Positions 6,268 through 48,698 are shown, counted from the first letter of the stretch. The stretch: DNA of 64,000 nucleotides from Betaproteobacteria bacterium (GCA_016192825.1 JACPTK010000004.1:2905-66904), one strand, 5' to 3'. Translations and numbers: made by a program. Notes: generated from the sequence alone by a model not told the origin.

Positions 6268-6379
6268 GGATGAGGGATGAGGGATGAGGGATGAGGGATG
6301 AGGGATGAGGGATGAGGGATGCGGGATGAGGGATGAGGGATGCGGGATGAGGGATGAGGGATGAGGGATGAGGGATGAC
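6268..6379 (+). repeat. Tandem heptamer array (GGATGAG) x16
   Basis: Counted directly: 16 contiguous 7-nt units. Units 8 and 11 are GGATGCG and the last unit is GGATGAC. The array starts 10 nt after the purL stop. Confidence 0.97.
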
Positions 6380-6390
6380 CCCCTCCAGCA

Positions 6391-6425
6391 GAAACGGCGC
6401 ACCCAGGTGCGCCGTTTCTTATTTG
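6391..6425 (+). terminator. Rho-independent terminator of purL
   Basis: 12-bp perfect stem GAAACGGCGCAC / GTGCGCCGTTTC with a 4-nt loop, followed by a T-rich tail (CTTATTTG). Confidence 0.7.
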
Positions 6426-6466
6426 TGACGCGTCACCAGTCACGAGTCACCAGTCACCAGTCACGC
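6425..6466. repeat. Tandem heptamer array GTCACCA/GTCACGA (5 units) preceded by palindromic GTGACGC
   Basis: Units are GTCACCA, GTCACGA, GTCACCA, GTCACCA, GTCACGC at 6432-6466. The array abuts the stop codon of the minus-strand PPIase gene. Confidence 0.92.
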
Positions 6467-34863: not shown

Positions 34864-34884
34864 GTGCCTCGAAACGCGCGGCTA

Positions 34885-34956
34885 GCGGATCGCGACTCGC
34901 GGATGGTGACAGCTTGCTTGATTGGCCCGGTCACGAGCCGCGATCCGCGAGTCACT
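34885..34956. repeat. Inverted pair of GC-rich heptamer arrays (GCGGATC GCGACTC GCGGATG GTGACAG ... GGTCACG AGCCGCG ATCCGCG AGTCACT)
   Basis: Left arm 34885-34912 and right arm 34929-34956. GACTCGCGGAT pairs with ATCCGCGAGTC. The right arm overlaps the prpC stop. Confidence 0.75.
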
Positions 34957-36100
34957 TTCGTTCCTGAATGGGAGCGAAGGGCCGCGGCTCGGGCCCGGTG
35001 TAGACCGCGGTGGGGCGGATGATCTTGTTGTCGATGCGCTGCTCGATGACGTGCGCCGACCACCCGCTGGTGCGGGCGATGACGAAGATCGGCGTGAACA
35101 TCGCCGTGGGCACGCCCATTCGGTGGTAGGAAACGGCCGAGAACCAGTCGAGGTTGGCGAACATCTTCTTCTCGCGCATCATCACCTGCTCGATGCGGTC
35201 GGCGATCTCGAACATCTCCATCTCGCCCGCGTCCGCCGAGAGCCGCCGCGCCACTTCCTTGATGATCTTGTTGCGCGGGTCGGCGATGGTGTAGACCGGG
35301 TGCCCGAAGCCGATCACGACCTCCTTGTTGCGCAGGCGCGCCACGATGTCGCGCTCCGCGGCGTCAGGGCTTTCGTAACGGTTCATCACTTCGAACCCGA
35401 CTTCGTTGGCGCCGCCGTGCTTGGGGCCCTTGAGCGCCCCGATCGCGCCGGTGATCGCCGAGTGCATATCGGAGCCGGTGCCGGCGACGACGCGGGCGGC
35501 GAAAGTGGAAGCGTTGAACTCGTGCTCGGCGTAGAGATTGAGGGAGGTGTGCATGGCCCGCACCCACAGCGACTTCGGCGGCTTCCCGTGCAGCAGGTGC
35601 AGGAAGTGACCGCCGATCGAGTCGTCACCGGTTTCGACCTCGATGCGGCGCCCGTCGCGGCTGTAGTGATGCCAGTAGAGCAGCATGGAGCCGAAGCAGG
35701 CCATCAGGCGATCGGCGATGTCGCGGGCGCCGCCGAGGTTGTGATCCTCCGCTTCCGGGAGCACGGTGCCGAGCGCCGAGCAGCCGGTGCGCAGCACGTC
35801 CATGGGATGGGCCGAGGCGGGGATCTGCTCGAGGGTGGTTCGCACCGCGGCGGGCAGGCCACGCAGGGATGCGAGTTTTTTCTTGTACCTCGCGAGCTCG
35901 GCCGCGTTGGGGAGCTTCTCGTGCACCAGCAGGTGCGCGATCTCCTCGAATTCGCACTGCTCGGCCGTGTCGAGTATGTCGTAGCCGCGGTAATGGAGAT
36001 CGTTGCCGCTGCGGCCGACCGTGCACAAGGCGGTGCTGCCGGCGGCAATGCCCGAGAGCGCCACCGATTTCTTAGGCTTCGGACCTTGTGATTCGCTCAT
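34952..36100 (-). CDS. prpC: 2-methylcitrate synthase
   Basis: About 382 aa from ATG 36100 ([17 protein letters not shown]). It closely follows the PrpC pattern ([58 protein letters not shown]). The track start at 36136 lies inside the heptamer array. Confidence 0.88.
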
Positions 36101-36124
36101 GGGCGAAAGCAGCGGCAGACGCGG

Positions 36125-36166
36125 GTCACCAGTCACCAGTCACCAGTCACGAGTCACGAGTCACGG
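36125..36166. repeat. Tandem heptamer array (GTCACCA) x3 (GTCACGA) x2 GTCACGG
   Basis: Six contiguous units between the mdh stop and the prpC start. Confidence 0.96.
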
Positions 36167-36172
36167 TATTAA

Positions 36173-40722: not shown

Positions 40723-40753
40723 GAATTCGTCGGTGCCCTGGCTCGACGAATTT
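40723..40753 (+). other. Hairpin directly after the sdhB stop (possible attenuator/terminator)
   Basis: Stem GAATTCGTCG / CGACGAATT(T) of 9-10 bp with an 11-nt loop; only a short T tail follows. Confidence 0.35.
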
Positions 40754-40842
40754 CATATTGGGCTAATTTGAAATCGGCAATATGGCGTGGTTGCTGCAGA
40801 TGATGGAATTCAGTAGCAGTGCCGAAATGCCGTTATATGCAA

Positions 40843-40874
40843 GGAATTTGCCGGACGATAGGCCGGCAAATTCC
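40843..40874. repeat. REP-like hairpin GGAATTTGCCGG-N8-CCGGCAAATTCC
   Basis: 12-bp perfect stem. A related copy (GGAGTTTGCCGG..CCGACAAACTCC) lies at 48414-48445. Confidence 0.6.
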
Positions 40875-40886
40875 TAGTTCGAGCGA

Positions 40887-41117
40887 ATGCGAGAACTGGA
40901 CCGCATCCGCTGGCGCTGCCGGCGCGGGTTGCTCGAGCTCGATCTCTTGCTCAGCGGATTTCTGGAGCGCCGTTTCGACCGGCTCGACGCGGCTGAGCGG
41001 CAGGCGTTCACGGAGCTGCTCGACCAGCCCGACAACGACCTGCTGGACCTGGTGCTGGGACGGTGCGAGCCGGCGCCGCGCTACCGGGCGGTGGTGGAGA
41101 TGCTGCGGGCGGGGTGA
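40887..41117 (+). CDS. sdhE: FAD assembly factor SdhE (Sdh5/YgfY family)
   Basis: 76 aa with the family motif WRCRRG.LELDLLL and a position between sdhB and gltA. Confidence 0.8.
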
Positions 41118-45449: not shown

Positions 45450-45483
45450 GCGGCAATTCGCAGCCGCCGCTGCGAATTGCCGC
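45450..45483 (+). other. 15-bp perfect hairpin immediately after the sucA stop
   Basis: GCGGCAATTCGCAGC-CGCC-GCTGCGAATTGCCGC, followed by an A/T-rich sequence but no clean T-run. Confidence 0.5.
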
Positions 45484-45609
45484 TAATTGAAATTCTGAAA
45501 TGGATATAGGTGAGGTTGGCTGCGGGAACGTTTCCCGTCCTAGAATGAGGTGTCCAGGCGAGTTGGAAATGAACGTTGCACTGCCCCATTCAATCATGTT
45601 CTCTAGGTT

Positions 45610-45643
45610 AGGATTTTTTCGCGCGCCAGCGCGAAAAAATCCT
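45610..45643 (+). promoter_or_regulatory. 14-bp hairpin abutting the sucB Shine-Dalgarno
   Basis: AGGATTTTTTCGCG-N6-CGCGAAAAAATCCT. Its right arm ends 1 nt before GGAG (45644-45647). Confidence 0.4.
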
Positions 45644-45657
45644 GGAGCGGAGTGAGC

Positions 45658-46887
45658 ATGCTGATCGAGGTCAAGGTTCCGCAGTTGTCGGAATCGGTGT
45701 CGGAAGCGACGCTGCTCACCTGGCACAGGAAGGCCGGCGAAGCGGTCAAGCGCGACGAGAACCTGGTGGACATCGAGACCGACAAGGTGGTGCTCGAGAC
45801 CCCCGCGCCGGCAGCGGGCGTGCTGGTCAGGATCATCAAGGGCGACGGCGGCACAGTGACCAGCAACGAAGTGATCGCCCAGATCGACAGCGAAGGCGCG
45901 GCGACGGTGTCCGTCGCCGCGCCTGAACAGAAAGATAGGGCAAGGACGGAAGCTCCGGCCGCGAAGGAGGGAACTCCGGCCATGCCGGCGGCGCAAAGGC
46001 TGGCGGCGGAGAAGCAGGTGGATACCGCCACGATCGCGGGAACGGGACGGGGAGGACGCGTCACCAAGGACGACGTGATGCAGGCGGTGGCGGGCGGGGC
46101 CCAAGCTGCGGTCAAGGCGCCGGCTGCCGCCGCTCCGGCTGTGCAGCGGGCCACCGCGCCTTCAGTGGACCTCGGCGCGCTGGGCGAGCGGCCCGAGCAG
46201 CGCGTGCCGATGTCGCGGCTGCGGGCGCGCGTCGCCGAGCGCCTGGTGCAGTCGCAGCACACGGCGGCGATCCTCACCACCTTCAACGAAGCCAACATGC
46301 AGCCGGTGATGGATCTCAGGAAGAAGCACCAGGAGCGGTTCGAGAAGACCCACGGCGTGCGGCTCGGCTTCATGTCGTTCTTCGTCAAGGCGGCGGTGCA
46401 CGCGCTGAAACAGTACCCCGTAGTCAACGCCTCGGTGGACGGCACCGACATCGTCTACCACGGTTTTTACGACATCGGCATCGCGGTCGGCAGCCCGCGC
46501 GGCCTGGTGGTGCCGATCCTGCGCAATGCCGACCAGCTTTCCCTGGCCGACATCGAGAAGCAGATCGCGGATTTCGGCAAGCGCGCGCAGGAAGGCAAGC
46601 TCACGATCGAGGAACTCACCGGCGGCACGTTCTCGATCTCCAACGGCGGGGTGTTCGGCTCGATGCTGTCCACTCCCATCATCAACCCGCCGCAGAGCGC
46701 GATCCTCGGCGTGCACGCGACGCGCGAGCGGCCAGTGGCCGAAAACGGCCAGGTGGTGATCCGGCCGATCAACTACCTCGCGCTGTCCTACGACCACCGC
46801 ATCATCGACGGCCGGGAGGCGGTGCTGTCCCTGATCGCCATGAAGGAAGCGCTGGAAGACCCGGCGCGCATCCTGCTCGACATCTGA
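45658..46887 (+). CDS. sucB: Dihydrolipoamide succinyltransferase (E2o)
   Basis: About 409 aa. Lipoyl domain [35 protein letters not shown] and catalytic [12 protein letters not shown] 45658 is preferred over GTG 45652. Confidence 0.95.
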
Positions 46888-46893
46888 AAGGGC

Positions 46894-46978
46894 GTGAATG
46901 GTGAGTGGTGAGTGGTGAATGGCAGAAACGGCCGGTTTCCGGGTTCAGCCCAATCACTACTCACCAATCACTATTCAC
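46894..46978. repeat. Inverted pair of heptamer arrays in the sucB|lpdA spacer (GTGAATG GTGAGTG GTGAGTG GTGAATG ... CAATCAC TACTCAC CAATCAC TATTCAC)
   Basis: Left arm 46894-46921 and right arm 46951-46978. The centre is 29 nt and contains a small GAAAC..GTTTC stem. Confidence 0.92.
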
Positions 46979-46989
46979 GCAGTTCAATC

Positions 46990-48414
46990 ATGGCCAAATT
47001 ATTTGATGTCGTCGTGATCGGCGCCGGTCCGGGCGGCTACATCGCCGCGATCCGCGCCGCCCAGCTGGGGCTGGCAACGGCGTGCATCGACGAATGGAAA
47101 ACCGCCGACGGCAAGCCGGCGCCGGGCGGCACCTGCACCAACGTCGGCTGCATACCGTCGAAAGCCCTGTTGCAGTCCTCGGAGAATTATCATCATGCTG
47201 CACACGCATTCTCGGATCACGGCATACAGATCAAGGGCCTGGCCCTTGATCTGGCGCAGATGCTCAGGCGCAAGGACAAAGTCGTCAGGCAGAACAACGA
47301 GGGCATCCTGTTCCTGTTCAAGAAGAACAAGGTCGCGTTCTACCACGGCCGCGGCAGTTTCGCCGGCGGCAAGGCCGGGGCGTGGGACATCAAGGTCGCC
47401 GGCAAGCCGGATGAAACGCTGAGCGCGAAGCACGTTATCGTCGCCACCGGCTCCACTCCGCGCGCCCTGCCCGGCGCCGCTTTCGACGACAAGCTCATCC
47501 TCGACAACGACGGTGCGCTTGCGATACCGGAAGTGCCGAAGCGGCTGGGCGTGATCGGCGCGGGCGTGATCGGTCTCGAGATGGGCAGCGTGTGGCGGCG
47601 GCTCGGCGCCGAGGTCGTCATCCTGGAGGCGCTGCCGGCGTTTCTCGGGGCGGCGGACGAGCAGGTCGCGCGCGAAGCCCTCAAGATCTTCACAAAGCAG
47701 GGACTCGGCATCCACACCGGCGTGAAGGTCGGCAAGGTGACGACGGGCAGGGATGTGAGGGTCGAATACGCCGATGGCGTGGGCAAGGCGCAGACGCTGA
47801 CGGTGGACAAGCTCATCGTCTCCATCGGCCGCATGCCCAACACGGAGGGGCTCAATGCGGGGGCGGTCGGGCTCAAGGTGGACGAGCGCGGCTTCATCGC
47901 GGTGGACGACGAATGCCGCACGAACCTGCCCAACGTGTGGGCTGTGGGCGACGTGGTGCGCGGGCCGATGCTCGCGCACAAGGCGGAAGAGGAGGGCGTG
48001 GCCGTCGCCGAGCACATCGCGGGCAAGCACGGCCACGTCGATTTCAACACGATCCCGTGGGTGATCTATACCTCGCCGGAGATCGCCTGGGTGGGGAAGA
48101 CCGAGCAGCAGCTCCGGAGCGAGGGGGTGCGCTACAAGGCTGGCCAGTTTCCGTTCATGGCCAACGGCCGCGCCCGCGCGCTCGGCGACACCGCGGGCTT
48201 CGTGAAATTCCTGGCCGACGAGAAGACCGACCGCATCCTGGGCGTGCACATCATCGGGCCGATGGCCTCCGAAACGATCGCCGAGGCGGTGGTGGCGATG
48301 GAGTTCCGCGCCTCGGCCGAGGACATCGCGCTGATCTGCCACGCCCATCCGTCGCTCTCCGAGGCGATGAAGGAGGCTGCGCTGGCGGTCGCTCAGCGCA
48401 GCCTGAATGTCTAG
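46990..48414 (+). CDS. lpdA: Dihydrolipoyl dehydrogenase (E3)
   Basis: 474 aa from ATG 46990. Motifs: [23 protein letters not shown], redox-active [14 protein letters not shown]-terminal HAHPSLSE. Confidence 0.95.
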
Positions 48415-48445
48415 GAGTTTGCCGGACTTGGGGCCGACAAACTCC
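48414..48445. repeat. REP-like hairpin GGAGTTTGCCGG-N8-CCGACAAACTCC, overlapping the last base of the lpdA stop
   Basis: 12-bp stem with one mismatch. Same family as 40843-40874. Confidence 0.6.
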
Positions 48446-48452
48446 TAAATGC

Positions 48453-48577
48453 AAATCCGCCTGCGCAAAAACGAATGAAAAGGCAGTGAAAACCTTATGT
48501 TCAGCCTGCTCGCGTGCCCGTTGGAGGCCAAGAAGGGTCGTCATCCCGTATTTCATTCGAAATGCGCAGGCGGTTTT
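48453..48577. repeat. Long-range inverted repeat (about 27-nt arms) enclosing about 70 nt
   Basis: The left arm AAATCCGCCTGCGCAAAAACGAATGAAA pairs with the right arm TTTCATTCGAAATGCGCAGGCGGTTTT. The match is 11 + 9 nt perfect segments separated by a small bubble. Confidence 0.6.
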
Positions 48578-48584
48578 GCTGTGA

Positions 48585-48618
48585 GCAGCCTGTCGGAATG
48601 CCAAGTCCGACGGGCTGC
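48585..48618. repeat. REP-like hairpin GCAGCCTGTCGG-AATGCCAAGT-CCGACGGGCTGC (family with 52064 and 62663)
   Basis: 12-bp stem with one mismatch. It shares stem and loop sequence with the two other copies. Confidence 0.7.
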
Positions 48619-48698
48619 CAGGAACCGTTCAACGGACCGTGTTTCCGGGTAGCCGTTGCCAATCCTGCTTTCATTCAGGCCGGCTCCAGGAATGGTGA

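Follow-up and report, generated by a model that had tools for sequence, protein, structure and literature searches.

A gene-less heptamer hairpin at the sucB-lpdA junction of a Burkholderiales genome and its probable origin as a lineage-specific insertion

This study focused on the question of why a spacer of 102 nt, built from inverted arrays of heptamers, should lie between sucB and lpdA, two genes that in the nearest relatives are separated by 9 nt or abut as TGAATG. The element is part of a window of 64,000 nt (the whole stretch of DNA that was analysed) from an uncultured Burkholderiales lineage, the assembly of which (G000) comprises 5.1 Mb in 123 contigs with 65% G+C. The spacer is one gene-less copy of a genome-wide family of heptamer hairpin repeats, and most likely represents a lineage-specific insertion, not a conserved regulator. 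The same arm architecture also encloses every four-helix-bundle (4HB; PF05635/TIGR02436) gene of this genome.

Structure of the element and its predicted fold

The initial annotation had described the spacer as an empty pair of inverted heptamer arrays at 46888-46989, and the sequence and coordinates it gave were exact to the base. The parts are as follows.

45652-46887, + strand: sucB (E2 of 2-oxoglutarate dehydrogenase), the gene 5' of the insert
46885-46887, + strand: sucB stop codon TGA, identical in position in all relatives
46888-46893, + strand: left terminal motif AAGGGC (family consensus AAA(G/T)GC, just outside the arm)
46894-46921, + strand: left arm, four heptamers, GTGAATG GTGAGTG GTGAGTG GTGAATG
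46922-46950, + strand: centre (loop) of 29 nt, with an inner CCGG-TTT-CCGG mini-hairpin at 46932-46942
46951-46978, + strand: right arm, four heptamers, CAATCAC TACTCAC CAATCAC TATTCAC
46979-46984, + strand: right terminal motif GCAGTT (family consensus GC(C/A)(T/G)TT, the mirror of the left tip)
46985-46989, + strand: CAATC, the final 5 nt ahead of the lpdA start, with no Shine-Dalgarno motif
46990-48414, + strand: lpdA (dihydrolipoyl dehydrogenase), ATG at 46990

Both arms were detected as period-7 arrays by TRF, and an inverted-repeat search returned arms of 31 nt each (46892-46922 and 46950-46980), 87% complementary and 27 nt apart. The left arm carries TGA in all three frames (at 46895, 46902, 46909 and 46916), and the right arm (46951-46978), which ends 11 nt before the lpdA ATG, contains neither a G nor a start codon. 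The pattern of four successive GTGAN3 units occurred 20 times in the window, compared with 0.00 times in 100 shuffles. There is no ORF in the 29-nt loop, and hence no S23p/PF05635 gene; the loop ends (GCAGAAAC ... GGTTCAGCC) resemble GGA(N)AAAC and GGTTCAGTCC, which are common to several other copies in the genome, and a tail, GTTCAATC, is shared with the best-matching copy (C10:14462-14562). An identical stretch of 151 nt was present in two independently assembled Logan contigs (SRR12113432 and SRR12113426), so the element is not an assembly artefact.

The predicted RNA fold had a free energy of -58.3 kcal/mol, compared with -34.1 +/- 3.5 kcal/mol for 200 shuffled sequences, none of which equalled it (z = -6.9). 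The stem consists of 27 pairs, two of them G-U, with a single G-A mismatch, and reaches 31 bp with extensions in which GC pairs with GC and then UGAA (46885-46888, including the sucB stop) with UUCA (46983-46986), so that the whole 102-nt spacer forms one hairpin, which begins at the sucB stop and closes 3 nt short of the lpdA ATG. Pairing of the arms, on which the initial annotation had made its reading depend, was predicted with a probability of about 1 in a 300-nt context. Occlusion of the ribosome-binding region of lpdA, which had also been raised there, is likewise predicted by the model, with the right arm and the base of the stem covering positions -10 to -40 of the ATG; over positions -20 to -1 the mean unpaired probability was 0.21 in the 300-nt context. 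When a ribosome footprint was imposed on the sucB stop codon, the lower 9 pairs opened and this value rose from 0.21 to 0.66. The sequence upstream of lpdA (CACGCAGTTCAATCATG) contains no Shine-Dalgarno motif.

The junction and its operon in related genomes

The junction was compared in 24 genomes of the same genus and in further Burkholderiales. It is TGAATG, with no spacer, in five congeners (G003, G022, G013, G024 and G001), and there is a spacer of 1-9 nt in three other genomes (G004, G007 and L055). Heptamer hairpins with other units and other centres occupy it in seven (G006, G002, G018, G015, G014, G012 and G023), and octamer-armed hairpins in six (G019, G009, G016, G008, G020 and G027); in all, at least 14 congeners carry a heptamer or octamer hairpin at this point. 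A maximum-likelihood tree was built from 2115 flanking columns for 40 tips in four junction states. The window was sister to the empty G003 (100/99), with the empty L055 as the next relative (99/96), and the junction states required at least 21 changes over the 40 tips. Even when only 150 nt on each side of the junction were considered, the window remained closest to its empty relatives, which rules out import of the element by homologous recombination. Alignment of the boundaries (TGA followed by AAGGGC at the left, CAATC followed by ATG at the right) with the TGAATG of the sister genome revealed no direct repeat longer than 1 nt, and thus no target-site duplication.

A distinctive pattern was seen for G006 and G012, which share an orthologous sucB-lpdA element with centres that are 85% identical, yet G006 groups (100/100) with four genomes that have TGAATG, and its flanks give no sign of import. 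This points either to precise loss or to repeated site-specific gain. In G012, a nested insert of some 130 nt interrupts the right arm of this same element, showing that an intact hairpin is not required. In a search for population polymorphism, two scans of metagenomes, directed at the empty and at the occupied allele, gave no matches.

Other repeats were also encountered at these sites. Octamer hairpins of the same size and position were seen in congeners and in other Burkholderiales (L088, L096, L097, L106, L093, L099, L001 and L063), with arms such as CGCAAAGA, GCGGAGAC, CACGAAGG and GACGCCAA that contain no stop triplets, and represent a second periodic-arm family competing for the sucB-lpdA junction. 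The insert nested in the heptamer right arm of G012 (L091/L036) is a GC-rich repeat ending in GGGGTGGTGGGAG; a repeat with the same end fills the gltA-sucA spacer of G019 (L122), making this a third repeat family in the genus.

The sucB-lpdA element had been reported as the third of its kind in the sdhCDAB-sdhE-gltA-sucAB-lpdA cluster, and the present analysis bore this out. The three occupancies are also independent, as claimed; their centres differ, and the sister genome G003 lacks all three, with spacers of 0 nt at sucB-lpdA, 22 nt at gltA-sucA and about 10 nt at sdhA-sdhB, which indicates three separate events in the lineage of the window. The statement that each element has its own unit variant holds weakly, all three being mosaics of one GTGAnTn family (identity at variable positions is, genome-wide, 0.594 for the arms of one element vs 0.554 for arms of different elements). 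It had further been suggested that the elements are either tolerated at gene boundaries within operons or targeted there. A general preference for gene ends was found, while targeting of the cluster was contradicted by the extra DNA elsewhere: about seven junctions from 33.4 to 50.9 kb of the window have sequence that G003 lacks (at sdhB-sdhE, at sucA-sucB and after lpdA, for example), and this includes two other kinds of insert and a repeat of about 210 nt. Extra DNA of several kinds speaks for a repeat-invaded genome and not for targeting of the operon.

The 210-nt repeat lies directly 3' of lpdA (48415-48640), where G003 has no such sequence, and GC-rich hairpins such as GGAGTTTGCCGGACTTGGGGCCGACAAACTCC form its boundaries; it gave 175 BLAST matches in the genome, has at least 80 copies close to full length, with identities of up to 94%, and is a second, younger, MITE-like family. 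The spacers at sdhB-sdhE (40723-40887, 165 nt) and sucA-sucB (45450-45656, 207 nt), which measure about 23 and 18 nt in G003, have an AT-rich core between two GC-rich hairpins and are almost unique in the genome, only a 35-nt terminal hairpin recurring a few times.

The genome-wide family, four-helix-bundle genes and comparable systems

When arrays were counted under one criterion for all periods (19 or more of 21 positions matching at the lag in question), this genome had 464 of period 7, against 35 of period 8, 17 of period 9 and 6 of period 6. The units fall into about 180 classes, with a GTGA/TCAC core in 43%, and 92 short inverted pairs, of median length 95 nt, met strict criteria. About 120 places in the genome match the sucB-lpdA element, the full-length copies being 70-79% identical to it, and the family has the general plan AAAKGC-(GTGAnTn)x4-loop-(nAnTCAC)x4-GCMKTT, in which the loop measures about 30-40 nt. 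Across 94 element ends, C was found at -1 in 81, G at -2 in 71 and A at -5 in 73, with A predominating from -4 to -6, giving the tip consensus AAAKGC before GTGA and GCMKTT after TCAC. Four units per arm was the mode (66/96 arms) and the median loop was 39 nt. Among 88 loop ends, CTGAA was counted in 9 and AAAC in 11, so that the shared loop ends are a feature of a subgroup. Within the GTGAnTn unit, where positions 1-4 are fixed by the search pattern, position 6 was T in 77% and positions 5 and 7 varied freely.

The two arms of an element belonged to the same unit family more often than did arms of different elements (0.587 vs 0.455). The orthologous elements available for comparison (gltA-sucA in G000 and G012, sucB-lpdA in G006 and G012) showed unit changes without compensation. 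Over 70 co-directional hairpins the sense strand folded better in 40 and worse in 30 (mean -1.7 kcal/mol), a difference that was not significant (p = 0.09), so the comparison of strands gives no support for selection at the RNA level; an asymmetry of G-U against A-C pairs between the strands was rejected as a sign of such selection, there being no significant sense excess of G-U. The constant parts of the family are the tips and the GTGA core repeated every 7 nt, and selection for pairing of the arms is unsupported. No two hairpins of the genome were more than 84% identical over their full length, and thus there was no sign of recent copy-and-paste transposition. About 88% of period-7 arrays were solitary, which means that the hairpin may be a special case of a broader array-forming process.

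Placement relative to genes followed a consistent pattern. Hairpins were found in co-directional gaps in 76% of cases, compared with a background of 65%, and there they began a median of 3 nt past the upstream stop codon, often providing that stop, and ended a median of 18 nt before the next start; array-free co-directional spacers had a median of 77 nt. For the 349 arrays of this genome at gene 3' ends (starting within -12 to +20 nt of a stop codon), the unit contained a stop triplet in the sense direction in 63% and in the antisense direction in 12%, with 17.5% for random heptamers. Given the period of 7, three stop-bearing units place a stop in every frame. The octamer families displayed no comparable enrichment of stop triplets in their units.

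The load of arrays with four GTGA units was 509 in G000, ranged from 2 to 470 within the genus, and was about 0 in 16 other families of the order. Genomes with an occupied sucB-lpdA junction had a median of 57 arrays per Mb, and those with an empty one 6.8. Array load was correlated with the number of PF05635 genes (Spearman 0.71), although the genomes are related and, as kin are not independent, correlations and p-value overstate the link. It is also a loose one, because G003 has 103 arrays of four GTGA units and no PF05635 gene, and G010 has three such genes and only 9 arrays. In G000 itself, 7/7 PF05635 genes lay inside a pair of inverted heptamer arrays, with a unit peculiar to each, and the ORF of the cassette in the window matched TIGR02436, 'four helix bundle protein'. 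In a sample of congener 4HB genes (n = 20), a period-7 array was present on at least one side in 14 and on both sides in about 9. The possibility that empty elements are internal deletions of 4HB cassettes was considered; the loop ends are similar to the inner ends of the window's cassette and of one in G015, but not to those of other cassettes, and the similarity is anecdotal.

No transposase or other mobility gene could be tied to the family; the gene-bearing relatives of the hairpin have only the 4HB gene, which is without known transposase activity. The genome has eight matches to Y1 transposases (PF01797), three of which lie within 1.5 kb of a period-7 array, a number that does not exceed what the background density predicts, and a link to RAYT/REPIN systems was rejected since none of these eight RAYT/IS200-type genes was bracketed by arrays. 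No 23S rRNA gene is assembled in the genome, so no 23S intervening sequence (IVS) was seen there.

The closest published counterparts are the GGGAATC repeats of Xanthomonas (Rehm et al. 2015, PLoS One, PMC4692102), which consist of four units and form 70-75 convergent inverted pairs per genome, mostly between co-directional ORFs, with the G-rich strand sense just past stops and antisense just before starts. They are transcribed, have been shown to form G-quadruplexes, and were assigned no function (PMC4692102). The sucB-lpdA element resembles them in its 4 + 4 tandem 7-nt units, in its convergent placement between aligned ORFs and in having the G-rich strand sense right after the stop. It differs in its units, GTGAATG and GTGAGTG in place of GGGAATC/(GGGANTN), which lack a run of three G; with no G-runs of 3 or more in GTGAnTn, a G-quadruplex of the published type cannot form. 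Also unlike Xanthomonas, there are many unit families in one genome, conserved tips, and loop ends common to some copies. Presence and absence across a genus at one junction, and the link to 4HB genes, are absent from the paper of Rehm et al. (PMC4692102). Intergenic period-7 arrays in excess are also represented by the cyanobacterial STRR/GGGGAYT and the Beggiatoaceae TAACTGA direct repeats (PMC4679880, PMC4692102), but these are mostly direct arrays with few inverted pairs and other unit sequences than here.

A second point of comparison is the 23S IVS of Coxiella burnetii (Warrier et al. 2016, PMC4990558), in which the inverted repeats at the ends pair into a stem of about 28 bp, broken by one or two defects, and heptamer repeats of strain-variable number adjoin an S23p/four-helix-bundle ORF. 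It is regarded as selfish, and RNase III cuts the 28-bp stem mid-way (PMC4990558); a Leptospira 23S IVS with an S23p ORF is cited in a passage of the same paper. The sucB-lpdA stem is similar, at 27 bp plus extensions with one G-A mismatch, and sibling copies in this genome carry the S23p/four-helix-bundle gene family. In contrast to the 23S IVSs, which occupy helix 9, 25 or 45, the sucB-lpdA copy is in an mRNA spacer and has no ORF.

Like REP, BIME and REPIN sequences, the hairpins are short, imperfect intergenic palindromes in hundreds of copies, found at gene ends or between co-transcribed genes and without target duplication; unlike those of REP/REPIN-RAYT systems, which are single palindromes of 20-35 nt, their arms are tandem heptamer arrays. 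The Correia (NEMIS) elements of Neisseria and the ERIC sequences of enterobacteria are MITEs, inserts of about 100-150 nt with inverted repeats that lie at gene boundaries and are co-transcribed as long hairpins, and those of Correia elements are reported RNase III substrates that alter mRNA stability. Correia elements duplicate a TA target, and their terminal inverted repeats are uniform. The family of the sucB-lpdA element shares with MITEs its terminal inverted repeats and many dispersed copies, but the heptamer element lacks a duplication and has periodic arms of variable unit composition. The family is neither a REP/RAYT system, a classical MITE with target duplication, a terminator, nor a strict IVS.

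Possible mode of entry and competing explanations

The explanation considered probable is that the insert is selfish or neutral, and that it is tolerated by virtue of its hairpin, which holds stop and start close to each other and leaves translation of lpdA coupled to sucB. The copy would have entered the lineage at a TGAATG or 9-nt-spacer junction, without target duplication or exchange of flanks, and would now be co-transcribed with sucAB-lpdA. TGAATG is the classic arrangement for coupling by termination and reinitiation. The 27-bp stem (31 bp when extended) would bring the sucB stop back next to the lpdA start, while burying positions -10 to -40 of lpdA, and a ribosome halting at the sucB UGA would presumably melt the base of the stem and free the start region of lpdA. 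Since lpdA has no Shine-Dalgarno motif, it is proposed to stay translated by coupling to sucB, so that the palindromic insert may make initiation at lpdA depend on translation of sucB. The TGA in each unit would stop any reading frame entering the element and, with stop and start kept close and TGA in all units, insertion at gene ends would be harmless. The stem is of the same size as the 28-bp stems that RNase III cuts in 23S IVSs, which suggests processing of the operon mRNA by this enzyme; by this analogy such cutting is plausible. The nested insert in G012, and arms that are not kept complementary, are evidence for neutrality, and the rise of occupancy with repeat load and 4HB gene number supports insertions rather than regulators.

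The alternative of a regulatory RNA selected by the host and setting the ratio of sucB to lpdA expression, whether by serving as a site of processing, by stabilising the mRNA or by gating the translation of lpdA, is considered unlikely. It would account for a very stable structure over the initiation region of lpdA, for a sense strand that folds better than the antisense in this copy (-57.2 vs -49.5 kcal/mol, with two G-U pairs), for the presence of some hairpin at sucB-lpdA in most repeat-rich congeners, and for the modest enrichment of hairpins in co-directional gaps, but it is difficult to reconcile with the junctions of the two nearest relatives and of 9-10 congeners, where TGAATG or a few nt stand in place of the element. 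Occupancy follows the genome-wide repeat load and not phylogeny or gene content, the sequence, the unit type and even the period (7 or 8) vary between lineages, one arm is split by an insert in G012, and there is neither a sense-strand advantage across the genome nor compensatory evolution of the arms. That the spacer is simply an internal promoter or terminator region, in turn, is extremely improbable, even though lpdA has its own promoter in some bacteria. The initial annotation had named a conserved promoter region in relatives as one finding that would overturn its reading; on the + strand from 46600 to 47200 there were 0 sigma-70-like sites (-35/-10 hexamers spaced by 16-18 nt) and no stem with a T-run, that is, no intrinsic terminator (the tail is GCAGTTCAATC), and the absence of the spacer from the nearest relatives, together with the lack of a sigma-70-like site, means that this is not a conserved promoter. 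Rfam gave no match at the gathering threshold, a permissive search returning generic pre-miRNA-like hairpins far below it.

Local generation, in which slippage of a stop-containing 7-nt unit built the left array and a templated or inversion-type copy then gave the right arm, is considered quite unlikely; it would make the element a simple-sequence repeat instead of a mobile unit. Arrays lie flush with or over stop codons (median +3 nt), 63% of units at gene ends have a sense stop triplet, a single genome has 180 unit classes and no hairpin copies more than 84% identical, the unit GTGAATG itself contains the ancestral junction TGAATG, and unit number varies between strains in the Coxiella IVS (PMC4990558), all of which speak for such a process. 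On the other hand, copies at unrelated loci generally have the AAAKGC and GCMKTT tips in common, and some of them also share loop ends of the GGTTCAGTCC type and the GTTCAATC tail; these shared non-repeat parts argue against purely local slippage. In addition, the whole 102 nt arrive in a single step between TGA and ATG, leaving the flanks as they were, and the arms of one element share a unit family far above chance (0.587 vs 0.455). A function at the level of DNA, with the GTGA units binding a protein (such as the 4HB or a nucleoid protein) or forming non-B DNA (a cruciform or G-quadruplex), is judged very unlikely. Position 6 of the unit is fairly conserved (T in 77%) between the free positions 5 and 7, as in a binding motif (positions 1-4 being fixed by the search), the variable positions are not kept paired, 4HB genes become more numerous as array load increases, and GGGAATC repeats do form G-quadruplexes (PMC4692102); against this, GTGAnTn lacks the G-runs of 3 or more needed for the published type, about 180 unrelated unit classes with one architecture argue against a single sequence-specific binder, and G003 manages 103 arrays with no 4HB gene.

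Returning to the selfish or neutral insert, a wider reading can be offered tentatively, as a possibility that is more doubtful than probable: the heptamer hairpins may belong to a class of insertable elements not yet described, as its form without a gene, the gene-bearing form being the one that carries a 4HB (23S-IVS/Avd-like) gene. Such elements would enter and leave stop/start junctions precisely, without duplication or exchange of flanks, and would act as 'intervening sequences of mRNAs', cut or removed by RNase III, with the stop-laden palindromic arms as adaptations that keep operons working. If such a class exists, it would explain the excess of heptanucleotide repeats in bacterial genomes, long noted according to a passage of PMC4692102, and if the links to RNase III and to 4HB genes hold, the IVSs of rRNA would be one case of a much wider class. 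The 2015 description of the inverted heptamer pairs of Xanthomonas gave neither an origin nor a function for them (PMC4692102), and the holding together of stop and start, with stops in all frames, offers a testable reason for tolerance in essential operons. The sucB-lpdA junction, TGAATG in some species and varied hairpins in others of the genus, provides a clean natural experiment.

Two further sites in the window have heptamer arrays in other arrangements. At 34864-36172, an ORF of 394 aa on the minus strand (34952-36136) has arrays at both ends (34877-34904 and 36125-36164); nothing corresponds to it in the syntenic 22-nt gap of G003, and it looks like a whole gene inserted or lost between arrays. 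At 6268-6464, an array of 16 GGATGAG units and an array of GTCACCA/GTCACGA units, which are not mutually complementary, flank a terminator-like hairpin (AGAAACGGCGCACCCAGGTGCGCCGTTTCT followed by TATTT), with the appearance of two array families at one convergent-looking site.
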